Source: an uncultured Bacilli bacterium
GTDB taxonomy: Bacteria; Bacillota_I; Bacilli_A; RF39; UBA660
DNA: 64,000 bases
Assembly (NCBI GenBank): GCA_934120635.1
Contig: CAKOUR010000008.1
Location: forward strand, 2,042-66,041
Direction of reading: 5' to 3'
In this document: positions 691 through 33,638 of the stretch, piece by piece
Layout: every line of letters begins with the position of its first letter
How positions within the stretch are numbered: the stretch's first letter is position 1
Translations under genes and position numbers: made by a program
The notes under the pieces: model-generated
The model's database searches: none
Told to the model about the DNA's origin: nothing
Seen by the model: the letters and a program-made list of their open reading frames with translations, nothing else

Positions 691-2730
691 CTATTTATAT
701 TTTTTCATGATTCTTAATGTATTAATTACCGTTAATAAAGTAACGCCAGTATCAGCAAATACTGCTAACCACATATTTACAAATCCAAACACACTAAGGA
801 GTAAAATAATTGCTTTTACCATAAGAGCGAAGATTAAATTTTCTTGAATAATTTTTTTGGTGTATTTTGAAATATCAATAGCAAGAGGAATTTTAGTTAA
901 ATCATCTTTCATTAGGACAATATCACTGGCTTCTATTGCTGAGTCACTGCCAACTCCTCCCATAGAAATTCCAATATCAGCTCTTTTTAAAACAGGGGCA
1001 TCATTAATTCCGTCTCCTACAAAGATAGTGATTTTTCCTTCTTTACTAACTTGTTCGAAATGTTCAAATTTATCTGTTGGAAGCATTTCTGTATAAATTT
1101 CATCTATTGCAAGTTTTTTTCCAATTTCTTCTGATACTTCCTTTTTATCTCCAGTAAACATATAAGTTTTAATCCTGTAGGATTTTAGTTTTTTGATGAC
1201 TTCTTCTGCATTTTCTTTAATTCCATCATCAATGGTAACAGACGCTACATGCTCTCCATCAATATTTAAGTGAAGCATTGCTTCTTCTTTGCAATTACAA
1301 AGTTTTTTATTGCCGATAAATATTTTTTTATTATCTAAAGTAAATTCAATTCCTTTTCCAGCATTTTCTTTAAAATCTAAGATATCTTTATTATCTACTT
1401 TTTCCTTTTTTAAATTTAGAATAGATTTTGCAATTGGATGATTGGAGAATGATTCTCCTTTTCTTAAAATATCAACAACCTCATCATAAGAATACTTATT
1501 TTTAAATTTATCCATAATTTCAATTGAAGATACTTTAAATGAACCATTGGTTAAGGTTCCTGTTTTATCAAAGATGATATGACTTACATTGCTTAAATTA
1601 TCTAGATAATTGCTTCCTTTAATTAAAATTCCTTTCTTACTAGCAACCCCTATTCCTGTAAAATAAGATAAGGGTACAGAAATAGCAATTGCACAAGGAC
1701 AAGAAATAACTAGAAAGGTAAGTCCTCGATAAATGCCTTCTTTTATAGAAAGATGAAAAATAAGTGGTAATAAAATCATAACTAGTATTGCTGTGATAAT
1801 GACAAATGGCGTATAAATTTTACTAATTTTAGAAACTAATGTTTCTGTTTTGGTTTTTTTATCCGTAGCACTTTCTAGTAAGTTTAGGATTTTGGAAACT
1901 GTAGAGTCTGAAAACAATGATGTTGCTTTCATCTCAATAATATTCCCTAAGTTAATGCTTCCGGATAGAATTTCAGTTCCTTCTTTGATAGATACTTCTT
2001 CGCTTTCACCTGTTAAGGCTGAGGTATCTAGTTTGCTTTCTCCTTTGGTAACGATTCCATCAACGGGAATTTTTTCTCCTTTCTTGACAATTAAAATATC
2101 ATTTATTTTTACTTCTTCAACGGGAATTTTTTCGATTTCTTCTTTATTTTTTCTATTTACATAATCCTCTTTTATGTTTAATAAGTTTTTTATTGAATTT
2201 CTAGAATTATTGATTGCTTTTTCTTCTAGTATTTTTCCAATTGTATATAAAGAAATAACCATCATTCCTTCTAATACTTCTCCAATACATAAAGCACCAA
2301 TACAAGATATTGTCATTAAGGCATTTTCATTTATTCCATTTCCTTTTCGTAATAGCTTTAAAGCGTTTATACTCGTTCGATATAATAAAATAGTATAAGA
2401 AACTAGATAAAAAATCCATTTAATTATTTTAGGAAGTGGGATAAAGTAACCAATTAATCCAATAGATAAACCTATGATAAGGCTTGAAAGATGAAATTCT
2501 TTCTTATTATCTTCTTTAGTCTCCGTAATATAAGCCTCTGGCTCTACTTTTTGAATGAATTCATTTAATTCTTCTATACTGTAGTTTTTTTCTGATTCAT
2601 AAGAAATTTTACAAGTATTAAAATTGACAATGGCATGATTAAAATTATCATTTTTATTTAATGCTTCTTCTACTTCTCTAGCACAATCAGCACAGTCTAA
2701 GTTGTTGATATGATATTGATATTTACGCAT
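691..2730 (-). CDS. cadA: Heavy-metal (Cd/Zn/Co-type) P1B-type ATPase
   Basis: N-terminal HMA domain with CADC. Transmembrane CPC motif (SCPCAIAISVP), DKTGTLT phosphorylation site and GDGINDAP hinge. 679 aa. Confidence 0.9.
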   Translation of the reverse strand: MRKYQYHINNLDCADCAREVEEALNKNDNFNHAIVNFNTCKISYESEKNYSIEELNEFIQKVEPEAYITETKEDNKKEFHLSSLIIGLSIGLIGYFIPLPKIIKWIFYLVSYTILLYRTSINALKLLRKGNGINENALMTISCIGALCIGEVLEGMMVISLYTIGKILEEKAINNSRNSIKNLLNIKEDYVNRKNKEEIEKIPVEEVKINDILIVKKGEKIPVDGIVTKGESKLDTSALTGESEEVSIKEGTEILSGSINLGNIIEMKATSLFSDSTVSKILNLLESATDKKTKTETLVSKISKIYTPFVIITAILVMILLPLIFHLSIKEGIYRGLTFLVISCPCAIAISVPLSYFTGIGVASKKGILIKGSNYLDNLSNVSHIIFDKTGTLTNGSFKVSSIEIMDKFKNKYSYDEVVDILRKGESFSNHPIAKSILNLKKEKVDNKDILDFKENAGKGIEFTLDNKKIFIGNKKLCNCKEEAMLHLNIDGEHVASVTIDDGIKENAEEVIKKLKSYRIKTYMFTGDKKEVSEEIGKKLAIDEIYTEMLPTDKFEHFEQVSKEGKITIFVGDGINDAPVLKRADIGISMGGVGSDSAIEASDIVLMKDDLTKIPLAIDISKYTKKIIQENLIFALMVKAIILLLSVFGFVNMWLAVFADTGVTLLTVINTLRIMKKYK

Positions 2731-3103
2731 AATCTTCTCCTTTCAATTTATGGTTAATATGTTCTAGTCCAATTTCATATAAACGACTGATATGTTCATC
2801 ATCTAGGGTATAATAAACTTCCTTACCATTTCTTCTAAATCGTACAATGCCTGCTTCTCTTAAGATGGCTAATTGATGAGAGATGGATGACTTTGTCATA
2901 TTTAGAACATTAGCAATATCACAAACACACATCTCATGATGATCTAATATCCATAAAATTTTTGTTCTTGTACTATCCCCTAATATTTTGAAAAGTGTTG
3001 TTAAATTTTCTAATTCTTTTTCTTTTGGTTTATTTTTTAAAGCAATATTAACAGCATTTTGATGAATGATATTACAGTCACACATTAATTCTTTTCTTTC
3101 CAT
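2723..3103 (-). CDS. cadC: ArsR/SmtB-family metalloregulator, CadC-like
   Basis: N-terminal Cys pair (MCDC), CVC in the EMCVCDIA helix, and winged HTH SSISHQLAILREAGIV. The stop overlaps the cadA start (ATGCGTAA). Confidence 0.85.
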   Translation of the reverse strand: MERKELMCDCNIIHQNAVNIALKNKPKEKELENLTTLFKILGDSTRTKILWILDHHEMCVCDIANVLNMTKSSISHQLAILREAGIVRFRRNGKEVYYTLDDEHISRLYEIGLEHINHKLKGEDYA

Positions 3104-3129
3104 TCTTTCCTCCTTACTTAACTATATTC

Positions 3130-3159
3130 ATTATAGTTGAATGATTATTCAATTGTCAA
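3130..3159 (-). promoter_or_regulatory. cadCA promoter with embedded palindromic operator
   Basis: On the minus strand: TTGACA (3159-3154), 18 nt spacer, TATAAT (3135-3130). The spacer holds a perfect inverted repeat TTGAAT-N4-ATTCAA (3137-3152), as expected for an ArsR/SmtB operator. Confidence 0.55.
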
Positions 3160-3239
3160 GAGTTAAATGAAGCAAATATTCTCCTTCAGTATTTTTATTA
3201 CAAAGAAAAAAAGTAGAATATTTCATCTACTTAAAGTAC

Positions 3240-3644
3240 TTATTTTTCTTCATTATTTAGTATAAAGTTTATTTTTTCATTTAATACAATACTAAATTCT
3301 TCTTCATCTATTGTATTACACCAAAAATCTAGGAGATAAAACTCATTGTCTATTCGTTCTAAAAAACATTGATATGTTCCATAAATTAGAGAAATCCATC
3401 CTTTACTATCATTATATATAATATCTGTTACATACTTAGATATATCTTTTTTATCATTCATTTTTAATTCTTTAATCCATTTTTTATCATACACTAGTTC
3501 TAATCCTAATTCAAAATCATCTAATATAAAAGTAATATATGGTGCTTTACCTGACCTTTTTTTACCATTTTGTTTTGCTTGATAATCTCCAAAAGATACT
3601 TGATATGAAAGTTTACTATACATCTTGTTATTTAATTTAATCAT
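3240..3644 (-). CDS. Hypothetical protein (134 aa)
   Basis: Long ORF 5 nt downstream of the preceding ORF. No recognisable motif. Confidence 0.5.
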   Translation of the reverse strand: MIKLNNKMYSKLSYQVSFGDYQAKQNGKKRSGKAPYITFILDDFELGLELVYDKKWIKELKMNDKKDISKYVTDIIYNDSKGWISLIYGTYQCFLERIDNEFYLLDFWCNTIDEEEFSIVLNEKINFILNNEEK

Positions 3645-3649
3645 ATTTA

Positions 3650-4078
3650 CTATATTCCCTTTATTAATTTTTCTAATTCAGTTTCATTCATTATATTTTT
3701 ATTATAATTAATTACTATCTTAAATGTTTCTTCATTATTTATATACACTTTATTGATACCATTTATAGATAATAAATTTTCAATAAAACTATACAAACAA
3801 TATTCACAGCACAAATCATTTAAATATCTTTCATACTTACCGTTATCTTCTTCTAATTGTTTATTAAAATAATAAAGACTAGGAATATTTGAAGTTTTAG
3901 TAAATTTTTTAATTTTATTAATAATCATTTGAGGACTAATATTTTTTGTATACTCAATAGTTATTTTTTCACTATTACTATTTATCTTTTTTATTTCTTT
4001 TAATGATAGTAAATATCTTTGTAGTTCTTTATTATCAAAACAACAATCATTCATTTTTAATGTAATTTTATTATTCAT
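3650..4078 (-). CDS. Hypothetical Cys-rich protein with two ~70-aa halves that resemble HMA/ferredoxin-like folds
   Basis: NDCCFDN in the first half and DLCCEYC in the second. Each is followed by an ...GI..V.IN....KIVINY... pattern like a beta-alpha-beta-beta-alpha-beta metal-binding domain. This is inference only. Confidence 0.45.
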   Translation of the reverse strand: MNNKITLKMNDCCFDNKELQRYLLSLKEIKKINSNSEKITIEYTKNISPQMIINKIKKFTKTSNIPSLYYFNKQLEEDNGKYERYLNDLCCEYCLYSFIENLLSINGINKVYINNEETFKIVINYNKNIMNETELEKLIKGI

Positions 4079-4217
4079 AATATTTTCTTTATGTTCCTTT
4101 CAAATAAATTATACCAGATTTTGTTTCTTGTAGTTGAATAATAGATAGTTTTAGAGATGTTTAGTTTATTATTATATTGTAGGTACTTTATCCACATATT
4201 TTTCTTTAGTCTTTGTT

Positions 4218-5375
4218 TCAATTTTGTCTTTTTCTACAATAACCTTTTTCATGGTCTTTTGAATAGCTGCCAATTTCTTTACTTAACTCTAATAATACTT
4301 GATCTGGTAAATTAATGTTAGAAAAATCAGGTTTTTTATCTTTGGGTAAGGTATTTTTAATAATAATCTTTAGATTATTTAATCCTATATTATAATCTAT
4401 ACAAAGTTGTTTATATATTCCATATGAAATAATACCTGATTCTAATTCAAGTAAATGTCTTACTAAGCTCATATCTAAAATATCCATGACATCTTGTACT
4501 TTGTATTCTTTTATGAAATCTATTTCTTTTTTGTTGCAAATTTTTTCTCTAATTAACCCTCTTATTGATTTTGCAAGAGATTGTAAGTAATTATCTTTCA
4601 TCATTCTTAATTTTTGTACTTCCCCATATTTAACGCCAATACTTTCTAGATAATCTATAAATAAATAATCTATTGCATATGTTGGGATTTCATGAAATCC
4701 ATAATATGTTTCATTTGGAATTTTTGGCTTAAAATAAAAATCAATACAATGCATTATTTCGTGGTTAAAGGCTTGAAAATCAATAATTAAGTTATTTCTT
4801 TTTATGGTACAAAAAGCTTTTCCATAAATATAATCGCAAAATGTTATTCCAGCGGCATTACTATATAATCTTGAATATGTATTTGAAAAATTGATGTTTT
4901 CTTTATCGTTAAAAGTTTTTAATGCCATTTGATAGATATCATTATCTTTTAAATTTTGATAAAATTGTTTTGATATATTTAATAATGTTACATTACTTGA
5001 TGGAAAAAAATCAAAATTAAAGTTTTCATTTGGAGTTATTGCTGGCTCTGTATTAATAACATTTTCCACAATATCTAATAAAAATTCTAGATAAGTTTTA
5101 TCCATATAATAATCAGTGTTGGTAATTATTTTTTCAAAATTACCTGTATATTTGGCACTTGGTCTGTTTAAAGAAAATTTTCCTTTAGATAAAACATCTA
5201 GAATATTATACATTTTAGTATTTTTGATAGTTCCACAGTTATCAATCATACTTATATATGAACCTAGAGTTATTTCTAATATTTCTTTTCTACCTTTATC
5301 AGTGCAAGTTTTAAGTTCATCTAATATTTGTTTTTTTTGGGTTTTTAGTTTTGTTATATTCCACACATTTATCAC
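4218..5375 (-). CDS. Putative zinc metallopeptidase (HExxH; M3/PepF-like core)
   Basis: FNHEIMHCIDF (HExxH) followed ~25 aa later by GFHEIPTYAIDYL, a candidate third ligand Glu. 385 aa. Confidence 0.5.
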   Translation of the reverse strand: MINVWNITKLKTQKKQILDELKTCTDKGRKEILEITLGSYISMIDNCGTIKNTKMYNILDVLSKGKFSLNRPSAKYTGNFEKIITNTDYYMDKTYLEFLLDIVENVINTEPAITPNENFNFDFFPSSNVTLLNISKQFYQNLKDNDIYQMALKTFNDKENINFSNTYSRLYSNAAGITFCDYIYGKAFCTIKRNNLIIDFQAFNHEIMHCIDFYFKPKIPNETYYGFHEIPTYAIDYLFIDYLESIGVKYGEVQKLRMMKDNYLQSLAKSIRGLIREKICNKKEIDFIKEYKVQDVMDILDMSLVRHLLELESGIISYGIYKQLCIDYNIGLNNLKIIIKNTLPKDKKPDFSNINLPDQVLLELSKEIGSYSKDHEKGYCRKRQN

Positions 5376-5467
5376 TTCTTCTGACTTTCATTTTTATGTA
5401 TTACCGTTATTAATTTTCTTATACTTTTTATGATTTTTGATTTAAGTATTTTTTATTTAAAATGTTA

Positions 5468-6016
5468 CTACTTCCAATCCCTATCTTTATTAAATTGTAA
5501 TTTTTTTTGTCTTATTAATTTTTTTGCATTTTCATCTTCTTTTTTATCAATATAATATAGGGAAGTATATTTTTCTTCAAATAATTTCATTTGATCTCTG
5601 TTATATGGTTCAAAATATAGGAATTCTATGATATTATCACTATTAATAAATCTTCTTGGTAAGCGATATTCTATTCTATAGTCTATATAGTTTCCTACAC
5701 CAATGTATTGATTTAAAATATTTTCATCAATGTTACATACCATAATATAATTTTCTTCGTCAGTGTTATGACAAAATTCTAAGACTGCTTGTAAATATTT
5801 AGCTAAAAAAATATATTGTTGGTAAAAGCAGTTTTCAGATATATATCTTTTAAAAATATGAAGAGGAGCATCATACAATTCTTTTGGTACATAATCAAAA
5901 GTATTTTCTCCTCCAGCACGAGCTTCTTTATATGGTATTTTTTCATAAATAATTGGCTCATTATTTTTTAATTTTTCTACTTGTTCTTTAGTAAATCCCC
6001 CATGAAATACTATCAT
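5468..6016 (-). CDS. Hypothetical protein (182 aa from MIVFHGG)
   Basis: ORF with internal ATG at 6016 preceded by GGAGAA. The track's upstream extension lacks an RBS. Confidence 0.5.
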   Translation of the reverse strand: MIVFHGGFTKEQVEKLKNNEPIIYEKIPYKEARAGGENTFDYVPKELYDAPLHIFKRYISENCFYQQYIFLAKYLQAVLEFCHNTDEENYIMVCNIDENILNQYIGVGNYIDYRIEYRLPRRFINSDNIIEFLYFEPYNRDQMKLFEEKYTSLYYIDKKEDENAKKLIRQKKLQFNKDRDWK

Positions 6017-6110
6017 CTTTATTCTCCGTTCTTTAATGTTGATTTTATGATAAAAAAGACTACTAATAAAATACAATAATTATGCACTATTTTTAGTAGT
6101 CTCAACAAAT

Positions 6111-6785
6111 CTATTTTATTTTTCTTTTTCGTTTCATGTCATAAATCATATTATCAAATTCTGCTATACTTTGAATTTCATATCTCATTTCTTGTAATCC
6201 TTCTTTAAAAGAGCTATCACTAAGTTGCTTTACTTCTTCTAAAGATTTAATAAACTCCTTTCGATGAGGTAAAGTTTCTTCAATATATATTGCTTTTAGT
6301 TTATCATTCACTACAAGTGTGTTGTTTTCTATTTGGGATATAACCAAATTTTCTTTTGAATATTTCTTTATCTTGTCTTGAAATTCTTTTAATGAGTCAA
6401 CTTGGCAAAAATTTAAATTATATTCTTCAGGTACCACCCAAAATACTTTACCTGATAATAATTCTTGTATACGATTATCGTTTAATTTTTGAAATATTAA
6501 TGGTTTGAATCTATCCTCTTTCAGTAAGAAATCTTTAGTACTCAATACATTTATGTTTCTTCCACATATTACATTTATAAAGTTACCATATGTATTATAG
6601 CTGTATTCAGGAGTTAAATAATATATATTGATTTGATTGGGCATTAATCCAAATAACATTCCCTCTTCAAGTTCACAAATATTTGATATATCATATTTCA
6701 ATAAAAAATCTTGGTATTCTTTATTAATATCAAAGTATATATTAACATCATTTATTGTATATGTTTTATCTTTTTTTTCAGCCAT
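6111..6785 (-). CDS. Hypothetical protein (224 aa from MAEKKDK)
   Basis: ATG at 6785 preceded by GGAGG. The upstream extension of the track ORF is unlikely. Confidence 0.5.
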   Translation of the reverse strand: MAEKKDKTYTINDVNIYFDINKEYQDFLLKYDISNICELEEGMLFGLMPNQINIYYLTPEYSYNTYGNFINVICGRNINVLSTKDFLLKEDRFKPLIFQKLNDNRIQELLSGKVFWVVPEEYNLNFCQVDSLKEFQDKIKKYSKENLVISQIENNTLVVNDKLKAIYIEETLPHRKEFIKSLEEVKQLSDSSFKEGLQEMRYEIQSIAEFDNMIYDMKRKRKIK

Positions 6786-6921
6786 AACAAACCTCCAATT
6801 CACTTGTAGTATAATACTGAGAGTGAGAAAAATCAAGTGCTTTTTACAAAAAGTTAATTTTTGTTTCATTTTTAAATTAAAATTTAATGGATGCTGGTCT
6901 TGATCAGTATTTTAATCACTT

Positions 6922-6957
6922 AAAAAGTAGACCTCTAGTTTATGTTTGTCTACTTTT
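6922..6957 (-). terminator. Rho-independent terminator after the ABC remnant
   Basis: 10-bp stem AAAAGTAGAC / GTCTACTTTT with a 15-nt loop and a T-run on the minus strand. Confidence 0.5.
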
Positions 6958-6968
6958 ATCATATCACT

Positions 6969-7233
6969 TTATCTACTTACTTTCTTTAATTCATATACTT
7001 CATCTACCATTTCACATACTTCTTTGGAGTGTGTTACAATAATGATACACTTCTTTTCTTCATGAGCTAGTTTTTTAAAGATATCTAATATTTCTTTTTT
7101 GGTTTCTTTATCTAGGTTACCTGTTGGTTCATCGGCGATAATCATTTTTGGACAGTAAGATAAACTTCTAGCGATAGCTACTCTTTGTTGTTCTCCTCCT
7201 GATAGTTTTAATATTTTTCTTCTTTTAAAACAC
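6969..7233 (-). pseudogene. 3' remnant of an ABC-transporter ATP-binding gene; Walker A and Q-loop missing
   Basis: Reverse translation gives ..KLSGGEQQRVAIARSLSYCPKMIIADEPTGNLDKETKKEILDIFKKLAHEEKKCIIIVTHSKEV..*. That covers the signature motif, Walker B and H-loop only. An in-frame stop sits immediately upstream at 7234-7236. Confidence 0.75.
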
Positions 7234-7325
7234 TTATAGAGATTTGTTTTTAATATTATTTTATTTGTGGTATTTTTTCTTTTATTTTTAATACTATTAA
7301 TTATGGTAAAGGAGATAAGTAATTA

Positions 7326-7481
7326 ATGTCTAAAAAAGATATTTGTTATATTTATTCAGAAGAGTTTATTTTTTCTTCAAATAATTTATCTGAAGAAAAA
7401 ATAAGAGAATTATTTAATCAAAAGATGTATTCTATAATTTTGAAAATAGAGGATTATAATGCTTTAGAGGATGATGAGTAA
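7326..7481 (+). CDS. Small ORF (51 aa) overlapping the recombinase start
   Basis: AAGGAGA RBS 7 nt before the ATG. It ends ...ALEDDE* and overlaps the recombinase ATG by 11 nt. Function unknown. Confidence 0.35.
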   Translation: MSKKDICYIYSEEFIFSSNNLSEEKIRELFNQKMYSIILKIEDYNALEDDE

Positions 7482-9576
7482 AAAAATGAATGTAAATACA
7501 AAAAATAGTAAAAAGAGATTAAGGGTAGTTTTATATTTACGATTATCTAAAGAAGATTTGTATAAATTAAGTCCATCTGAGAAATCTCAAAGTATTAAAA
7601 ATCAAGAGATAATACTTAGAACTTATGCGTTAGAAAATGGATGGAATATTGTTGGGGTTTTTGATGATGAAGATTATTCTGGTTCTGATCGAGAAAGACC
7701 TAATTTTAATAAAATGATTAATGAATGTAAAGAAGGGAATGTTGATATTGTTTTAGTAAAAACACAGGCTAGATTTGCTCGTGATATTGAACTGGTGAAT
7801 GAATATGTTCATAATAAGTTCAGGCAATGGAATGTTAGATTTGTTACTTATATTGAAAAAATTGATAATACTAAAGATGAAACTAAGAAGACAAGTCAGA
7901 TTATTGCGATGAAAGATGAATGGCTTCTTGAAGATACTTCTAAAAATATTAGGGAAACTTTAAAATCAAAAAGAGCAAAAGGGCAATTTACGGGAAGTTT
8001 TGCCCCTTATGGTTATATAAAAGATAGGGAAAATAAAAATCATTTATTGATTGATCCGATAGCGTCTTTAAATATAATTAGGATATTTGAAGAATATAAT
8101 ATGGGATATGGAATGGATAAAATTGCTAATAGATTATCTAGAGATAATATTTTAAGTCCTTTAGAGTATAAGATATTTAATGGGAGTAAAATTAAAATTC
8201 CTATAAAAAGAAAAGATTATGTTAATTATATTAATAAAGCAGGTACTTATGTTATTGATATTAATTATACAAATAATCAGAAGAAAATATTAAAAAATAT
8301 AACTACTATTGAAGTTATTTCTAATGCGTTATTATTTAATAATACTTTTAATATAAGACTTTTAAAAAAGAAAAATAGTAAAATTAAAATTTATTATTCA
8401 ATAAAGGATTTAAATAAGTTAGATATTATTATTGATAATGGTAAATATTTATTTAAAAATAAACCAAATTTTAATAATGATGATTGTTGGAAGGAATTTA
8501 AATTAAATGATACACTGCCTAAAGATGTTACTTGTATTGCTACTTATATAATGGACTTAGATAGAATGCATAATATTTTTTATAGTTTTGAAATTACATT
8601 AAAAGAGAATAGGAATCATTTAAAATATTATTATTATATATTTGCTTATGCTGATTATTATAATACTCATTTAAATTATCATATTAAAGTTAGAAATAAA
8701 TACAATTGGAGTGCTACTACTATTAGAAAAATATTATTTGATGAGGTATATATTGGAAATTTGGTACAGTTTAAGACTACTACTGTCAGTTATAAAAATC
8801 ATACTCTTATTTATAATAATAGTGATGAACAAATAAGAGTAGAAAATACTCATGAGGCTATTATTAATTTAAGGTTATGGAATGCAGTTCAAATAAAATT
8901 ATCTCATAATAAAAGATGTTGTAAAGGTGGAAAAGTTCATTTATTATCTAATAAAGTTTACTGTCAATGCTGTCAAAAAATATTTTATAAATGTGGAAAG
9001 AACATAGATGGTATGGGATATTTATGTTGTAAAGATAAGTTAACTAGTTGGTCTAATTGTGATAATAAAAAATGGATTAATGAAAGGTTTTTACATGAAT
9101 ATATTTTACAAAAGTTTAATATTTTATTAGATAAATATTATTCTATAAATAAACAGATTAAATATGATAATTCTTTTGTTGAAAATAATTTATTTCAAGA
9201 AAAAATTAAAGTTTTACTTAAAGAAAAGAAAGATATTAGTTTTGAGTTAGATAATAAAAAAGGGTATTTTAAAACTTTATATGTGGATTTTAAAAATGGT
9301 ATTCTAAATAAAAAACAATACTTTTATTTAAAGGAAGAAGATGAGGTAGAAATGAAACGATTGGAACAAAGATTAAAAATTATTGAAAGAAATTTGAAAA
9401 GTATTTATAAAGAAAAAAATGAGAGAAAAAATAGATATTTCTTATTTAATAAATATAAAGAAATCAATACTTTAAATAGTTTTATTGTAGATAATTTTAT
9501 CGATAAGATTATTATAGGGAAATATGATTTAATAACGAATAGTCGTAATATTAAAATTATTTGGAATTTTTTATAA
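7471..9576 (+). CDS. Large serine recombinase (701 aa)
   Basis: N-terminal resolvase-type catalytic domain (VVLYLRLSKED..., DIVLVKTQARFARD). Recombinase domain (APYGYIKD, WSATTIRKILFDEVYIGNLV). Cys-rich zinc-ribbon (CQCCQKIFYKCGK...CCKDK...C). C-terminal coiled coil. Confidence 0.9.
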   Translation: MMSKKMNVNTKNSKKRLRVVLYLRLSKEDLYKLSPSEKSQSIKNQEIILRTYALENGWNIVGVFDDEDYSGSDRERPNFNKMINECKEGNVDIVLVKTQARFARDIELVNEYVHNKFRQWNVRFVTYIEKIDNTKDETKKTSQIIAMKDEWLLEDTSKNIRETLKSKRAKGQFTGSFAPYGYIKDRENKNHLLIDPIASLNIIRIFEEYNMGYGMDKIANRLSRDNILSPLEYKIFNGSKIKIPIKRKDYVNYINKAGTYVIDINYTNNQKKILKNITTIEVISNALLFNNTFNIRLLKKKNSKIKIYYSIKDLNKLDIIIDNGKYLFKNKPNFNNDDCWKEFKLNDTLPKDVTCIATYIMDLDRMHNIFYSFEITLKENRNHLKYYYYIFAYADYYNTHLNYHIKVRNKYNWSATTIRKILFDEVYIGNLVQFKTTTVSYKNHTLIYNNSDEQIRVENTHEAIINLRLWNAVQIKLSHNKRCCKGGKVHLLSNKVYCQCCQKIFYKCGKNIDGMGYLCCKDKLTSWSNCDNKKWINERFLHEYILQKFNILLDKYYSINKQIKYDNSFVENNLFQEKIKVLLKEKKDISFELDNKKGYFKTLYVDFKNGILNKKQYFYLKEEDEVEMKRLEQRLKIIERNLKSIYKEKNERKNRYFLFNKYKEINTLNSFIVDNFIDKIIIGKYDLITNSRNIKIIWNFL

Positions 9577-9599
9577 TATATTTCAAGAAAACTTTATAT

Positions 9600-9803
9600 G
9601 TGGCTACTGGTCCAACTGGACCTACTGGACCTCAGGGAACTGCTGGCCCTCAAGGAACTGCAGGGGCTACACCAAATTTGACAATTGGAACAGTAACAAC
9701 AGGAAATCCCGGTACACAGGCTGCTGCTACAATAACAGGAACAGAACCAAATTTCATTTTAAATTTAACTATTCCTCAGGGACCTACTGGACCTACAGGT
9801 TAA
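9600..9803 (+). pseudogene. 3' segment of a collagen-like (GXY-repeat) protein gene, without its own start
   Basis: Encodes VATGPTGPTGPQGTAGPQGTAG, then a 38-aa spacer, then GPTGPTG*. The segment is G+C-rich and starts abruptly at 9600. The only upstream in-frame start codon lies inside the recombinase 3' end. Confidence 0.6.
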
Positions 9804-9808
9804 TTTAG

Positions 9809-10906
9809 ATGAACAAATATAAAGTATGCGTTTATGCTATTTGTAAAAATGAGGAAAAGTTTGTTACTAAATGGGTAAATTCAATGAAAGAGGCTGATAA
9901 AATATTTGTATTAGATACTGGATCAGAAGATAATTCTGTTTCTTTATTGAAAGAATTAGGTGTTATTGTAAAGAAAAAAATTATCAAACCATGGAGGTTT
10001 GATGTTGCTAGAAATATTTCTTTAAATATGGTAGATAAAGATGCTGATATTTGTGTTTGTACTGATTTAGATGAAATATTATTACCTGGCTGGCGGGAAA
10101 ATTTAGAGAAAAATTGGGAAAAAGAATTAAATTGTCTTTTTTATCGATATAATTGGAGTTTAGATAAAAATGATGTTCCTAAAGTTAGTTTCTATTTAGG
10201 AAACATTCATGATAGGTTTCATTATCAATGGACTCATCCTGTTCATGAAGTTTTATCTTATTTAGGAAACGATGAAGAAAAAATAAAATATACTGATGAT
10301 ATTACTTTAAATCATTATCCAGATGTCTCTAAAAGTAGAAGTAGTTATCTTCCTTTGTTAGAATTGTCCGTTAAAGAAGATAGTTCTGATGATAGGAATA
10401 TGCATTATCTCGGAAGAGAATATATGTATTATGGTAAATATCAAGAATGTATTGATACTTTAATTCATCATTTATCAATGAAAAAAGCTACCTGGAAAGA
10501 TGAAAGATGTGCTTCTATGCGATTTATTGGAAGATGTTATAAATTCTTAAAAAGATATGATGAAGCTAAAATGTGGTATGAAAAGGCAATTAAAGAAGCG
10601 CCTTATTTAAGAGATGCTTATGTGGAATTAGCATTACTTTACTATGAACTTCATGATTATGGAAATATGATTAAGTATTGTCATCAAGCACTTAGGATAA
10701 AAGAAAAGAAGGATACTTATATTAATGAAGTATTTAGTTGGGATTATACGATTTATGATTTACTTTCTATAGGATTTTTTGAAATAGAAGATTTTGAAAA
10801 AGCACTCTCTTATTCTAAGATGGCTGTTGATATGGAACCTGATAATCAAAGATTAATTGATAATTATCAAATTATTTTGGATACAGTAAACCGATATACA
10901 GATTAA
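9809..10906 (+). CDS. Family-2 glycosyltransferase fused to C-terminal TPR repeats
   Basis: VYAICKNEEKF..., DTGSEDNS and a TDLDE (DxD) motif. The C-terminal half has TPR-like repeats (YLGREYMYYGKYQEC, RCYKFLKRYDEAKMWYEKAIK, ALLYYELHDY). It starts 5 nt after the collagen-like stop. Confidence 0.75.
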   Translation: MNKYKVCVYAICKNEEKFVTKWVNSMKEADKIFVLDTGSEDNSVSLLKELGVIVKKKIIKPWRFDVARNISLNMVDKDADICVCTDLDEILLPGWRENLEKNWEKELNCLFYRYNWSLDKNDVPKVSFYLGNIHDRFHYQWTHPVHEVLSYLGNDEEKIKYTDDITLNHYPDVSKSRSSYLPLLELSVKEDSSDDRNMHYLGREYMYYGKYQECIDTLIHHLSMKKATWKDERCASMRFIGRCYKFLKRYDEAKMWYEKAIKEAPYLRDAYVELALLYYELHDYGNMIKYCHQALRIKEKKDTYINEVFSWDYTIYDLLSIGFFEIEDFEKALSYSKMAVDMEPDNQRLIDNYQIILDTVNRYTD

Positions 10907-14795: not shown

Positions 14796-16490
14796 ATGAA
14801 GAAAGATATAAATATTTTAATTGATGAGATAGTTTCAAATGTAAAAGATGAGTGGCCTATTCTTTATAAAATTAGATATGTCTATTTAGCATTGGGAAAA
14901 GAGTTAATGAGGGATACTGATTTCTTTTTATCAGTAGATGGAAAATTAGGAAATGCCAATTTATCTAATCAAGAAATTATTGATATTTATAATAGTGAAA
15001 AAGGGAGAGGTCTTGCAGTAATTTGCAAATCTGCCTCTTCTATTTTAAAGATGGCTTATGATAGATTAGGAATTCATTCTGAATTAATTGAAACGAATAC
15101 TTCTTTAGCAACAATCTATGATGAAGGAGAATTTTTAATTAATCATTGGTTTTTAGCAGTATATGATGATAAAGGAAAAGCCTATTTTATGACATTAACT
15201 CCAGATTTAGGCTATATTCAAATGAATATGGAAACCAGACATTTTGCTTCTAATATTCCTTATATTAGAGATTTTGGTTCTAAGAAGATGCAAGTATATA
15301 AAGGAGAAGAAATCAAACCTAGTTCTATTTCAAGAGATGAATTACAAAAAATTGATATAGAAATTGGCTATATAAAAAGAGAATATTTATATAATGACAA
15401 ATATCAAAAAGGAAAGAACTGGAAAAAAAATTATGATAATGCAGCATTTTCCATGTTAAAAAATGAAATGAATAATAATAAACTATTCTATGAGATTGCT
15501 TTACAAAAATCTTCCTTTTATCATTTTTGTACAAACTTTAGGGGAGAAAATGGAAGATATATTTCTTTTGAACAAGATGATTTAGTTAATTTAACAAACG
15601 AAGATTGGTATTGTTTTAATAAAATTATTTGTAAACAAGTTTTAAATAGAATAAATAAGCTTCTAGGATATGAGGTATTTATTATTCCAAATATTAGTAG
15701 TAAATATTGGAATTATGAATCTTGGCTACTTAATTTATGTGTTAAATTACAAGATGATATACTAAAGAGAATGAACTTGAAAAATGAAGCAGATACTAAT
15801 ATAACTATTGATTTAAATCATTTTGAATATAATAAATGGTCTCGAGAGATAAAATCAAAATATATATCTAACCAATCTTATGATGATATCTTAAGTATTC
15901 TAGATAAAATGAATTCTTTAGTAAAAAGTACTCAAGAAGAAAACACAAGAAAAAATGTTGGTATTTTACTTCATAAACTAGGTTATCATTTTATTTCTAC
16001 GAAATATATTTATGAAAAAAATATTGATGAAAATGGATACTTATCTAATAGTTATATTGCAAATAAGTTTAATCTTTTATTTCCTTATGTATTTAGTTGT
16101 AATGATGTTATTACGGATTTTAATAAAATGGGTTATAGTGAGCAGGTTTCTATTATTAAAGAAGTTATAATGTTAATGTTTTCTGAAATTAGTAAAAATA
16201 ATTCTATTGGGTTAAATGGATATAACGAAAACTATAATGCTACTTTTAATCGAATACAGATGTATACTGTTAGAAATAAAGAAACACAGGATTATTCAAT
16301 TATTTTTAATATTCCTAGTAATAGCAATGAATTTGATTATTACTTCTTTTATAACCCAGGAAATAATTTATTTAAGGCCGTTAACTTTTTAGATTTTTAT
16401 AATGATTATACTATTGTTAGTAATCGTCTTAAAAATAAGCTAAGTATTATGGATTTAGAAAAGATTGAAAAAAAAGGAAAAAAATTTTAG
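14796..16490 (+). CDS. Hypothetical protein (564 aa); N-terminal region with a possible transglutaminase-like core
   Basis: RGLAVICKSASSILKMAYDRLGIHSELIE...INHWFLAVYDDKGKAYF. The Cys..His..Asp spacing resembles that of the 11957 ORF. Confidence 0.5.
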   Translation: MKKDINILIDEIVSNVKDEWPILYKIRYVYLALGKELMRDTDFFLSVDGKLGNANLSNQEIIDIYNSEKGRGLAVICKSASSILKMAYDRLGIHSELIETNTSLATIYDEGEFLINHWFLAVYDDKGKAYFMTLTPDLGYIQMNMETRHFASNIPYIRDFGSKKMQVYKGEEIKPSSISRDELQKIDIEIGYIKREYLYNDKYQKGKNWKKNYDNAAFSMLKNEMNNNKLFYEIALQKSSFYHFCTNFRGENGRYISFEQDDLVNLTNEDWYCFNKIICKQVLNRINKLLGYEVFIIPNISSKYWNYESWLLNLCVKLQDDILKRMNLKNEADTNITIDLNHFEYNKWSREIKSKYISNQSYDDILSILDKMNSLVKSTQEENTRKNVGILLHKLGYHFISTKYIYEKNIDENGYLSNSYIANKFNLLFPYVFSCNDVITDFNKMGYSEQVSIIKEVIMLMFSEISKNNSIGLNGYNENYNATFNRIQMYTVRNKETQDYSIIFNIPSNSNEFDYYFFYNPGNNLFKAVNFLDFYNDYTIVSNRLKNKLSIMDLEKIEKKGKKF

Positions 16491-30828: not shown

Positions 30829-31101
30829 TTATTCTTCGTTTTCCTCTATTCCCTCTCGTAGTAAATTTAAGAATTTTTTTGCTAATTTTTTATTTAATTC
30901 TTCATCTATTTCTTCAATTACAGTTTTGGTATCTTCTTCTTTTAACTCTACTATTTTTAATTCTTCCATATCTGGTTCTTCTTCTTCATCTACTGGTGCT
31001 AATAAGATGTATTGTTTGTTTTCTTCTAATAACATTTTTAAAACTGTATATTCTGTATTATCTTCTAAGGTAATAATATCATATAATTCTATCTTTTTCA
31101 T
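30829..31101 (-). CDS. DUF1292-family small acidic protein
   Basis: IITLEDNTEYTVLKMLLEENKQYILLAPVDEEEE...KIVELKEED..VIEEIDEEL matches the YrzB/DUF1292 pattern. 90 aa. Confidence 0.6.
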   Translation of the reverse strand: MKKIELYDIITLEDNTEYTVLKMLLEENKQYILLAPVDEEEEPDMEELKIVELKEEDTKTVIEEIDEELNKKLAKKFLNLLREGIEENEE

Positions 31102-33638
31102 TTAGATAATCCTTTCACATTTTCTAAGTTAATATCATTAATGTTATACCAACCTTCTTCAATGGCATCTAATTGTTCTCTTGTGATTTGCATATTATTT
31201 CCACAACTTGCAAGATATTTATCTTTGTTTGCTGTTAATACTGTTACAACTTCTCCACCATTATTTATCATTTGTTGAATATCTTGATTAGCATTTTCGT
31301 TATAAGCATATTTTCTAACAATACCTTGACCGTTAGCTATTCCTACTCCTAATACAATTCTTTTCGTGTCGTTATTAAATGTTGGAGTAAAAGCATTTTC
31401 CTGAAAATATGCATCAAAAACATTTCTATGTATATTTCCGTTAACAGTTACTTCGCTGCCAATTCGAATTGAATTTTTATCATAATTGTTATATTCATCT
31501 GTTTCATATGAAACATATTGATCAACATCATCATCAAGATATGTTAGATTAGATGAATCATTTTCTATGTATGAATTTGTATCATCATATTCATATGGAT
31601 TAGCATTATTATCAAGTAAGAATCCATCATCACTATCGTTTGAATAATCATTTTCTTCATTAACCGGATCTATTATCGGTTGCATATTTACAAAATCCGT
31701 ATTAGAATCTTCAGCATTTGTTAGAGATTGAATTTCCTCATCTGTTAGTAATTCTGGATGATATATTTCATCACCATTACTATATGTTGTTTGAATATCA
31801 GATGAATTATCTAACTCATCAGTATTATTTTCTATTGCTGTATTCATTTTTGGTGTAGTTATTTTTTTTGCAATTGCTGTTCCTCCTGCGCATATCAAAA
31901 CTAGAGTCACTGCAACGGAAGATATTTTTGCTATTAATCTCTTAAAAATATTCTTCTTTGGTTTTCTTACTGATTTTACCTCTTTTGATTTCTTACTTTC
32001 TTTTTTTGTTTTATTTTCTCTAGTTTGTTTTTCTGAAGATTCTAAATTGCTTGTTGTAGATTGATTTTCTGATTTTTTTCTCAAACTTTGATCTTCTTCT
32101 GTTTGGATTTTTGGTTCCTGTTTTTCGATTGATTCTTGACCTGAGGTATCAGGATTTAATATTTTTTTTAGATTTTCTTTATGTGTTTCTTGTGGTTGCT
32201 TTGTTGGCGCTCTTAATATGCTTTTTAAATTCTCTTTATGCATTTTATCTTTTTCTTCTTGTTGATGATTTTCTGCATTTTGTAAATTTTTTTGAAAAAT
32301 TGTTCTAAATTGATTTACTAAATCATCATCGTTAGTAGTTTGTGTTGTATTAGCTAAATTGTCATTATTTTTTCCTAAGTTAGCAATTGTTTTATTTAAG
32401 GCATCATTTAATTCATCATTAAAACTAGTAATTGGTTTCATAACTGATTCTGAAGGTTCAACCTCTGGCTCTACTTCTTCTGGGATATTATTTTTCTCAA
32501 AATTATCTTGCAAAGGAAGTGAAGCTCCTCTAGATACTAGTATGTTTGCTATCGCTTCTGTTTCATTAGCGACATCAGAAAAATCTTCTGGTAGTTTTTG
32601 TTCTTCTATATCTTTATATTTTTCTAGTATTTCTACTAGTTCACTATATCTAGATTTTAATTCTTCTGTCGATAAATTATTTAAATTTTCAAAATTTATC
32701 GTTTTATTTTGAGGAGATACATTATTTTCTAAATTATTTGAAGGACTATTATTAACTTTTTTTGTAGCATTACCATTAGGTTTAACTACTTTAGATTGTA
32801 AATTCTGATTGATTAAATTATTAATAATATTTTTAGGAACTAATTTCTTATTTTTATCAATTTCATTTTGAAGAAGAATTTTATCTCTTTCTATTTCATT
32901 TTTTTCTTGTTCATCCCTAGCAATAGTAGTATTGATTTCTTGAAGTTTTTCTAAATCATTTAAAATGATTTCATAGCAATTTACAATTTGTGTGTTTCTT
33001 AATAACTTTCCTTTTTCTCTTCTGATATATTTTTTTATCTTCTGAAAATCTTCAAGATATTCTTTTTTAGTAATTATATCCTTTAATTCATCTAACTTTT
33101 TAAGTTCTTCTTCTAAATGCTTTAATTCATTTTTATTTATTAATATTTCATTTTTATAATCTTCTATTGTTTTAGATGATTTTCCTGTTAAATTAAGTTC
33201 ATCTTGCAAATCTTGTTCAAGAATTTCTTCTTTAATGTCAATAGTATTTCTAGAAATTGCTTCTTGTAATTCTGATGGTAAAACATTTATATTTTGTTCT
33301 AAAAGAACTTCTAATTTTTTTCTATCACTTTCTAGTTCACTTTTTTCTTGTGGACTGCTAATTTTGATTTTTTCTAGATTTTCTATACTCTTTTTATATA
33401 TTTTTACCATATCATAGGCTTTTATGATACTCTCTAATCTTGCTTTTTCTTTTTGAAGATTATCCTTATAGTTTATTGCTTGATTTTCTTCACTTTGACA
33501 TTTAGAATCATACTCATATTTACTTATTTTACCTTTTTCTATTTTTAATTCATTTAATGTATGGTTGATACTCTTTAAAATTTCTTCAATCTCTTGTAGT
33601 CTTTCTTGATATTTATTTAATATATTTTTTTCTTCCAT
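31098..33638 (-). CDS. Large coiled-coil / low-complexity single-pass membrane protein (846 aa), unknown function
   Basis: The N-terminal ~290 aa are coiled coil with an internal duplication. A Ser/Thr/Asn/Glu-rich linker follows, with repeated HKENLK(S/K)IL, then one TM helix (VAVTLVLICAGGTAIA) and a ~230-aa C-terminal extracytoplasmic region. Confidence 0.7.
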   Translation of the reverse strand: MEEKNILNKYQERLQEIEEILKSINHTLNELKIEKGKISKYEYDSKCQSEENQAINYKDNLQKEKARLESIIKAYDMVKIYKKSIENLEKIKISSPQEKSELESDRKKLEVLLEQNINVLPSELQEAISRNTIDIKEEILEQDLQDELNLTGKSSKTIEDYKNEILINKNELKHLEEELKKLDELKDIITKKEYLEDFQKIKKYIRREKGKLLRNTQIVNCYEIILNDLEKLQEINTTIARDEQEKNEIERDKILLQNEIDKNKKLVPKNIINNLINQNLQSKVVKPNGNATKKVNNSPSNNLENNVSPQNKTINFENLNNLSTEELKSRYSELVEILEKYKDIEEQKLPEDFSDVANETEAIANILVSRGASLPLQDNFEKNNIPEEVEPEVEPSESVMKPITSFNDELNDALNKTIANLGKNNDNLANTTQTTNDDDLVNQFRTIFQKNLQNAENHQQEEKDKMHKENLKSILRAPTKQPQETHKENLKKILNPDTSGQESIEKQEPKIQTEEDQSLRKKSENQSTTSNLESSEKQTRENKTKKESKKSKEVKSVRKPKKNIFKRLIAKISSVAVTLVLICAGGTAIAKKITTPKMNTAIENNTDELDNSSDIQTTYSNGDEIYHPELLTDEEIQSLTNAEDSNTDFVNMQPIIDPVNEENDYSNDSDDGFLLDNNANPYEYDDTNSYIENDSSNLTYLDDDVDQYVSYETDEYNNYDKNSIRIGSEVTVNGNIHRNVFDAYFQENAFTPTFNNDTKRIVLGVGIANGQGIVRKYAYNENANQDIQQMINNGGEVVTVLTANKDKYLASCGNNMQITREQLDAIEEGWYNINDINLENVKGLSK

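Follow-up and report, generated by a model that had tools for sequence, protein, structure and literature searches.

The 64-kb window analyzed here, a stretch of AT-rich chromosomal DNA (27.4% G+C overall) from an uncultured Bacilli bacterium (contig CAKOUR010000008.1), probably holds the right end of an integrative element that has split a small collagen-like gene. This right end would comprise positions 7326–9607. The element would be driven by a large serine recombinase (LSR) of 701 amino acids and would extend leftwards from an insertion point in the GPT-repeat coding region of the collagen-like gene, directly upstream of the gene for a glycosyltransferase, GT2-TPR. We put the probability of a collagen-like gene split in this way at about 80%. 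That the copy in the window is still complete and excisable is a further claim, for which the odds are roughly even.

Collagen-like Gene Fragment Next to the Recombinase

The LSR gene occupies positions 7471–9576 of the forward strand, with its stop codon at 9574–9576. After a gap of 23 nucleotides the composition changes from 14.8% G+C (9377–9599) to 46.6% (9600–9803), with 59.7% G+C within the triplets, and a collagen-like frame begins on the same strand. From position 9600 it encodes VATGPTGPTGPQGTAGPQGTAG, made up of GPT, GPQ, and GTA triplets, followed by a non-collagen stretch of 38 amino acids (ATPNLTIGTVTTGNPGTQAAATITGTEPNFILNLTIPQ), GPTGPTG, and a stop codon at 9801–9803. The GT2-TPR gene (9809–10906, forward strand; Pfam Glycos_transf_2 plus TPR) starts after another 5 nucleotides. 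Recombinase, compositional switch, and closely spaced glycosyltransferase had been described in an earlier prediction made from the letters of the window (the original prediction), and all three were recovered. The collagen-like segment had also been said to lack a start codon and a ribosome-binding site (RBS) of its own. The first part of this statement did not hold, because an in-frame GTG at 9600–9602 is used by gene callers to give a 67-amino-acid product; another in-frame start, a TTG at 9561, lies within the 3′ end of the LSR gene. The second part stands, as neither codon is preceded by a Shine-Dalgarno sequence. No terminator-like site was found between the LSR stop codon and the fragment or GT2-TPR, and a scan for promoters gave no usable signal in DNA this rich in AT (36 sites versus 33.7 expected).

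A protein search with the 67-amino-acid fragment returned 483 relatives, of which the 120 listed are 62–118 amino acids long. Two kinds were seen among the matches listed. Proteins of the first kind have a real N terminus (e.g. MNNENGYKKALNIIMEANKKRPIVGCC...GPTGPTG), GPT repeats, and the same 38-residue stretch, referred to below as the β-module. Proteins of the second kind start with junk peptides (MEFFIIYFKKTLYVA-, MKLQLILLDDLFYRG-, and MELSNLIYKEDLNNG-) that correspond to read-through from AT-rich DNA into the collagen frame. Intact homologues possess an N-terminal domain of about 30–40 amino acids (MNN...RP..CC..GPTGPTG), extra GPT repeats, and their own RBS. At locus L014, an intact collagen-like gene of 108 amino acids, with a TTG start preceded by AAAGGAGG, lies directly before a GT2-TPR orthologue with no recombinase between them. 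The intact gene together with the GT2-TPR orthologue was also found at L111–L113, L116, L128, L129, L131, L140, and other loci, where the LSR was undetected. Judged by these comparisons, the collagen-like open reading frame (ORF) of the window is a 5′-truncated gene without its N-terminal domain, promoter, and RBS. Both the truncation and the expected presence of an intact gene in relatives free of a nearby recombinase were thus borne out. As GT2-TPR follows the intact gene as its host partner, the DNA to the right of the junction belongs to the host, and the insertion therefore lies to the left.

Alternatively, the ORF could be a complete collagen-like gene of 67–80 amino acids that is expressed independently and stands next to a recombinase by chance. 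Gene callers annotate products of 61–80 amino acids at such junctions, and the GTG at 9600 is kept in all strains and in the sister species represented by L017. However, this GTG has no Shine-Dalgarno sequence, and homologues away from an LSR carry the additional conserved N-terminal domain. The junctions of other subfamilies give different read-through peptides, and by our own reading an in-frame stop codon directly precedes the collagen frame at L034. Of the 71 related LSRs considered below, at least 52 lie against collagen triplets, so that the adjacency is not incidental. We consider an independent gene very unlikely.

The β-module (9672–9785) follows the pattern TPxLTIGTVTTGxPGTxAxATITGTxPNFVLNLTIPQG and is present in one to three copies in intact homologues, for example at residues 55–104 of P0194. 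It also matches phage minor-tail and tail-fibre PHROG families. No match to BclA_C (PF18573) was obtained for the fragment, the intact homologue P0194, or the rejoined gene of L019. Strain variants of the fragment encode 61, 67, or 76 amino acids or a two-module version, all in frame. In L236 (12251–12679) a unit consisting of GPQGTAG plus the β-module is duplicated in tandem in the 3′ fragment, where the scaffold also has an N gap. The same strain has a G-to-T change (GTGTCTACTGG) in the element-side arm of the junction described below.

Targeting of Collagen Repeats by the Recombinase Family

A scan for the LSR with one genome per species yielded 80 loci. Nearly all hosts are uncultured gut "Bacilli," "Tenericutes," and "Mollicutes" represented by metagenome-assembled genomes (MAGs); Clostridium sp. 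CAG:914 and Acholeplasma sp. CAG:878 are among them. In 71 loci, all from other GTDB species, the sequence continued for 60 nucleotides or more past the LSR stop codon, and G-X-Y triplets were scored there within 110 nucleotides downstream. Three or more triplets near the stop codon were present on the + strand at 44 loci and on the − strand at 8, and most of the remaining 19, inspected by eye, showed one GPT-like triplet or a pair of them in this position. Going by these counts, the recombinase family almost always abuts collagen-repeat coding sequence.

Candidate complete elements with both gene halves apparently visible were found in 13 cases, with sizes of 2.3–9.2 kb; both halves flank the element at L019, L026, L034, L036, L051, L061, L068, L070, L071, L077, and L080, among others. 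All 13 have a central AC. The host arms B and B′ take the form GGNCCN-AC-NGGNCCNACNGG, and the attP arms are imperfect inverted repeats with 14–22 matches in 22 positions, the repeat being perfect in L080. Both halves are intact ORFs in 12 of the 13, and joining across AC, with the arm sequences read by eye, restores the G-X-Y frame in 12 of the 13. The sole case that did not rejoin is L053 (9760–12112), which has an apparent 1-nucleotide frameshift in the 3′ half, in the host arm just after the junction; it is also the smallest candidate element (2.3 kb) and contains only the small ORF and the LSR. The targets are several different collagen-like genes, hit in both orientations, and some MAGs carry at least two copies of the element. 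The target motif recurs many times within a gene, and several genes of a genome contain it.

By comparison with these elements, the junction at 9584–9629 of the window (forward strand) would be of the attR type. It is predicted to consist of an element-side P arm (9584–9605, CAAGAAAACTTTATATGTGGCT), assigned by position and motif; a central crossover dinucleotide AC (9606–9607), assigned from the 13 candidate complete elements; and a host-side B′ arm inside the GPT-coding repeats (9608–9629, TGGTCCAACTGGACCTACTGGA). In both its position and its outer purine-rich motif, the P arm agrees with those of the 13 candidates. In the proposed mechanism, the LSR would recombine an attP site of about 46 bp with imperfectly inverted arms and a GGNCCN-AC-NGGNCC site inside the collagen triplets. 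Precise excision would make the G-X-Y frame continuous again, so that the 3′ fragment regained promoter, N-terminal domain, and RBS; it would likewise give a promoter back to the co-transcribed glycosyltransferase. A 51-amino-acid ORF upstream of the LSR gene may assist excision.

Several contigs from independent assemblies end at the predicted crossover or a few nucleotides away from it. The 3′ ends of L043, L046, L058, and L096 read ...GCAAC, L009 and L010, which come from two different samples, start at window position 9604 (2 nucleotides left of AC), and L105 starts at 9579. These ends fit alternative partners, either excised forms or several insertion sites, although only weakly, as repeats could have the same effect. 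A degenerate 46-nucleotide pattern for a free attP gave no match in IMG/VR.

The split of a collagen-like gene by a recombinase element reaching leftwards, as proposed in the original prediction, is supported by the family-wide targeting and by the 12 in-frame rejoinings in relatives. The in silico join suggested there succeeded in these relatives; for the window, no 5′ half to be joined was found within its 64 kb or the 6.8 kb to its left. Three observations had been named as speaking against a split gene, namely, absence of a 5′ half from the whole genome, the same short fragment in close relatives without the recombinase, and an independent upstream start of the fragment in homologues; none of them was made in the data reached.

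An invertible, shufflon-like switch that exchanges alternative 3′ ends of a collagen-like gene would also place a recombinase beside a promoter-less 3′ coding segment, and the length of the fragment does vary among strains. However, no other collagen-like sequence was found on either strand of the window, nor any alternative collagen cassettes or copies of the junction in inverted orientation. Strains differ by in-frame changes of repeat number or a module duplication and not by an exchange of cassettes, and the complete relatives show a simple insertion geometry. An inversion system was rejected on these grounds and is scarcely credible.

Architecture of the Recombinase and the Small Upstream ORF

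The window protein matches the Pfam families Resolvase (PF00239, E = 1.6e-22, residues 19–172) and Recombinase (PF07508, E = 1.7e-16). The match to DUF4368 (PF14287) is weak, with 22.2 bits against a cut-off of 25 bits; this domain is annotated in most homologues and PF13408 in many. Across 33 homologues, R24 and S26 of the LYLRLS motif and the ribbon cysteines 498, 501, 508, 520, and 530 are invariant. An AlphaFold2 model (pLDDT 77) contains the catalytic domain, the recombinase domain, a zinc ribbon (about residues 496–518), and coiled-coil helices (538–652). It also contains a confidently modeled all-β insertion of about 150 amino acids within the recombinase domain (about residues 250–400). 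A Foldseek search with this model found the full-length integrases of SPβ, ϕC31, and Bxb1 with E values from 2e-19 to 3e-12. The best sequence match in the PDB was the catalytic domain of TnpX (2mhc, E = 3e-14), and the catalytic domain of TP901-1 also matched. The window protein is a large serine recombinase of canonical, intact architecture with a DUF4368-like C terminus. The all-β insertion may contribute to recognition of the collagen-repeat target.

Homologues number in the thousands and are nearly all about 700 amino acids long, and all strains and species examined have a full-length LSR. No entry on record was identical to the LSR protein of the window in an exact look-up. The closest relatives in IMG/VR are at most 45% identical over a match span of about 1.5 kb, which leaves out the insertion, and those in INPHARED and PLSDB at most 33%. 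These phage and plasmid relatives are shorter (about 515 amino acids) and lack the all-β insertion. The five putative cargo ORFs of the window without a Pfam match had no PHROG match either. A prophage was rejected on the basis of these two results.

The 51-amino-acid ORF (7326–7481, forward strand) is preceded by the RBS AAGGAG, overlaps the start of the LSR gene, and belongs to a conserved family of small proteins. Homologous ORFs of 42–61 amino acids lie just upstream of the LSR in most loci with the same orientation, down to 40% LSR identity, and share the motif F.Y.EEF.T...ELK.IFN.KYF..IK..E. The ORF had no match in Pfam or PHROG. Its sequence is identical in 532 collection blocks. By analogy with GirX of the Bacillus gin element (see below), it is a candidate recombination directionality factor or accessory protein.

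Age and Selective Constraint

In the sister species, locus L017 has the gene order cadA, cadC, two-component system, ABC/FtsX, 51-amino-acid ORF, LSR, collagen fragment, GT2-TPR, mutY, and enolase. Its LSR is 78% identical to that of the window, and the inner 14 nucleotides of the P arm are identical in both. Synonymous divergence (dS) between the window and L017 was 0.25–0.47 for genes of the island and 0.26–0.38 for chromosomal genes. Because the two ranges are similar, the insertion predates the split of the two species, and the comparison points to vertical inheritance of the junction in this clade.

The LSR gene had a dN/dS of 0.28 against L017. For the β-module of the fragment, a pN/pS of 0.28 was determined (14.3 non-synonymous versus 19.7 synonymous differences over 41 codons). 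These values indicate that both the LSR and the promoter-less 3′ fragment are under purifying selection, with the signal for the fragment coming from only 41 codons. The in-frame strain variants are weak evidence in this respect, because slippage in units of 9 or 18 nucleotides preserves the frame anyway. Subject to a caveat about gene conversion (see below), constraint on the fragment speaks for continued use of the split gene, for which the halves must be rejoined.

The age and constraint of the junction also bear on a second explanation, in which the element is a selfish, cargo-carrying LSR transposon of the Tn4451/Tn5397 type. Collagen repeats would then be a safe harbour, excision would occur for transposition only, and the host gene would be sacrificed. 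Transposons of this type have GA as crossover dinucleotide and a mobilization function (tnpZ). The recombinases TnpX (Tn4451/Tn4453) and TndX (Tn5397) resemble the family described here in their catalytic domain, their DUF4368-type C terminus (a weak match in the window protein), their length, their small cargo-bearing elements, and a target that resembles the element ends. The TnpX catalytic domain is, moreover, the closest solved sequence. The complete relatives are likewise small and carry resistance-type or accessory genes, including those for GNAT acetyltransferases, an ABC-F protein, a radical-SAM enzyme, an APH-type kinase, NUDIX, a metallo-β-lactamase fold protein, an arylsulfotransferase, helix-turn-helix (HTH) regulators, ABC/FtsX, and an M60 peptidase. 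Insertion into several collagen-like genes, in both orientations and with at least two copies in some MAGs, also agrees with a transposon. Long vertical inheritance in the clade of the window and coding constraint on a promoter-less fragment argue against it, as do the 12 of 13 candidate elements in which both halves are intact ORFs. Identity to TnpX and TndX is low outside the catalytic domain, and the central dinucleotide is AC, not GA. Features peculiar to the family described here are the conserved small ORF upstream and the choice of collagen repeats as target. A Pfam scan of 20 cargo proteins found no phage structural protein, relaxase, or Mob domain, and no mobilization gene was seen. 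The transposon explanation overlaps with the favored one and differs from it solely in the benefit to the host. It has a real chance of being correct, although we do not consider it probable.

Left Side of the Element

Left of the recombinase module, the window contains a putative cargo or accessory region on the reverse strand (691–6869) with cadA (691–2730), an ArsR/CadC-type regulator (2723–3103), both on the reverse strand and assigned by Pfam, and five ORFs without family match. A cadCA plus ABC/two-component module would fit as cargo of the element, consistent with the accessory and resistance cargo of the relatives. Next to the module lies a 5′-truncated ABC ATPase fragment (6969–7232, reverse strand) that covers only positions 101–136 of the ABC_tran profile. 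L017, L021, and L022 have 2–5 kb more at this place, comprising the rest of the ATPase, an FtsX permease, a histidine kinase, and a response regulator. The breakpoints at the fragment share the microhomology TTTTTC(A)TCTT. Among ten strain contexts of one species (L234–L243), the stretch from cadC to the 51-amino-acid ORF varies from 0 to about 9 kb. The nested deletions leave fragments of the ABC ATPase, histidine kinase, and response regulator, for which L017 (4527–9743) serves as comparison. The ABC fragment was considered as a second att junction or an inversion end. This was rejected, and the fragment is an internal deletion scar according to the longer versions in L017, L021, and L022, the microhomology, and the nested deletions.

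If the element of the window is complete, its left end and the 5′ half of the gene would still exist more than 16 kb away. The 5′ half should end in ...GGNCCN-AC and be followed by about 20 nucleotides resembling AGCCACATATAAAGTTTTCTTG. Walks to the left through cadA and the leftmost HTH gene did not reach a left end and stopped in a 690-bp repeat. Contigs L011 and L100 end at the two edges of this 690-bp region, 6.2–6.8 kb left of the window start. The unit (L011, 18879–19568; L100, 1–690) consists of a promoter and a gene for a 188-amino-acid HTH/transmembrane protein and is 99.6% identical in both. A 98%-identical protein variant comprises 1152 member sequences, which lie on contigs of about 700 bp, and the gene also forms part of several chimeric ORFs. 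The unit thus behaves as a multi-context repeat at which the examined contigs break.

Several results weigh against the favored explanation. Neither a 5′ half nor a P′ arm nor any further collagen-like sequence was present on the two strands of the 64-kb window, in the 6.8 kb leftwards in L011, or in the 10 kb left of the LSR in L017. An intact allele from the species of the window was not present among the 120 listed of the 483 protein hits. A scan of metagenome contigs with the fragment gave one contig of the same species, which starts in the P arm, and no intact allele. Relatives with both ends visible are at most 9.2 kb long, so that the element would be unusually large or would have lost its left end, and the region adjoining the LSR module is decaying via nested deletions in different strains. 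The selection signal of the fragment comes from 41 codons only and could also be produced by gene conversion between paralogues. Finally, the 51-amino-acid ORF differs between the window and L017 (9859–10014) by non-synonymous changes only (dN 0.083, dS about 0), unlike every neighboring gene; in this small sample, fast evolution together with the LSR is one possible reason. Two further searches for the left end were also negative. No locus examined had the P arm's reverse complement after GGNCCNAC in a fuzzy search, and no attL was seen within 10 kb of the 51-amino-acid ORF in 10 strain contexts. Either the element is more than 16 kb long or the left end has been lost.

Loss of the left end is central to a third explanation, a fossil junction. 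Left end and 5′ half would have been deleted or moved by an inversion, the gene would be dead, and the LSR would be kept for other reasons or would have been stranded recently. No attL was found within 16 kb, nested deletions that differ between strains adjoin the LSR module on its left, assemblies break at the 690-bp repeat 6.2 kb left of the window, and no assembly searched contains the intact allele. In addition, the candidate continuation of L011, L100, leads to a different LSR at a truncated gene for a penicillin-binding protein (PBP), which only a rearrangement explains if the two contigs are contiguous. However, the LSR is full length wherever examined, with the low dN/dS given above, and the core of the P arm is identical between species. 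The fragment is in frame in more than 10 strains and conserved against L017, although the split predates the divergence of the two species. We regard a fossil junction as rather unlikely.

L100 also contains an N6/N4 methyltransferase and a TraG-like coupling protein. At 5738–8366 of this contig, the gene for its LSR (593 amino acids) overlaps the start of an apparently 5′-truncated PBP gene (298 amino acids, Transpeptidase plus PASTA), which is followed by fic and mraY. This locus may represent a second gene-splitting element, located in a PBP gene of the cell-wall or sporulation type. In L014 (13151–15001), an unrelated LSR of 616 amino acids lies 1.7 kb downstream of murB and is followed by ORFs without family match; this region may be a further integrative element.

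Comparison with Known Systems

The closest parallel is the gin element in gerE of Bacillus cereus ATCC10987, which encodes the LSR GirC and the 42-amino-acid protein GirX (PMC5595907). Like the elements described here, gin is a non-prophage intervening element with an internal LSR and a very small protein without known motif, and its excision rejoins the reading frame, as the in silico joins do in the relatives. The complete relatives are as small as one LSR plus the small ORF (2.3 kb). In contrast to the unique site in a sporulation regulator used by gin, the target here is a repetitive collagen-like motif. The LSR is about 700 amino acids long with an extra β domain, and the hosts are uncultured gut Bacilli.

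Two further gene-intervening elements are known from Bacillus subtilis, skin (SpoIVCA, in sigK) and SPβ (SprA/SprB, in spsM) (PMC4191935, PMC5499854). They resemble the element proposed here in having an LSR at the element edge beside the att site, a host gene in two halves (of which the window shows the 3′ one), and vertical inheritance of the split state. In contrast, skin and SPβ are prophages or prophage-derived with proven mother-cell-specific excision, and the family described here is without phage genes and not represented in the phage collections searched. Their sizes are 48–134 kb. The likeness to these elements drawn in the original prediction therefore stands for the LSR at the edge and the split gene and does not extend to a prophage-like nature, as the scanned cargo is small and accessory.

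The collagen-like gene itself can be compared with BclA-type exosporium glycoproteins, which are collagen-like and have an adjacent glycosyltransferase gene (e.g. bclA3-sgtA of C. difficile). In both, the repeats are GPT-rich, no signal peptide precedes the short N-terminal domain, and the gene directly downstream encodes a cytoplasmic glycosyltransferase. The C terminus differs, being formed here by the 38-residue β-module shared with phage tail fibres and not by BclA_C. No sporulation genes were noticed among the window proteins scanned. The related uncultured Bacilli orders RFN20, RF39, and ML615J-28 are predicted to comprise species that sporulate and species that do not (PMC10868615).

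One possible role is that the LSR family and its partner of about 50 amino acids form a rearrangement system tolerated or used by the host. Located in collagen-like glycoprotein genes, the elements would then be excised only in a terminal or minority cell state, such as a sporulating mother cell or a phase variant, which would switch on the collagen-like protein and the glycosyltransferase. We consider this role doubtful. If it were true, programmed reconstitution as in sigK and spsM would be extended to another class of genes, to a new recombinase subfamily, and to a lineage that only metagenomes have revealed. In full-text searches of the literature, no paper connected serine recombinases or intervening elements with collagen-like genes. 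The host genes known to be split and rebuilt by LSR elements are a few sporulation genes of cultured Bacillus and Clostridium. The present case differs in that a distinct LSR subfamily (about 700 amino acids, an extra β domain, and a conserved partner of about 50 amino acids) occurs across uncultured gut Bacilli, in no fewer than 80 genomes at species level, and repeatedly targets one short motif in collagen-triplet repeats with a fixed AC crossover. If active, the elements would offer a new integrase family together with a defined attB motif and a set of natural attP/attB pairs. Truncated-looking collagen-like genes in these MAGs would then be split genes and not annotation errors, and surface glycoproteins in abundant uncultured human gut bacteria might be under programmed or phase-variable control.

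Other Features of the Window

A human gut metagenome scaffold (ENA ERZ28616022, scaffold_335) is identical to the first 12.7 kb of the window. The window also has housekeeping content, including rpoB/rpoC-sized ORFs, dnaE, dnaB/dnaI, aspS, and gatCAB. Three large ORFs of 846, 725, and 564 amino acids (31098–33638, 48465–50642, and 14796–16490) lie amid these genes and had no Pfam or NCBIfam match; the first is located between rpoB and rplL/rplJ-sized ORFs. On the reverse strand, positions 37735–39708 encode a protein of 657 amino acids with both a GDSL lipase/acylhydrolase domain and a dockerin domain of type I.

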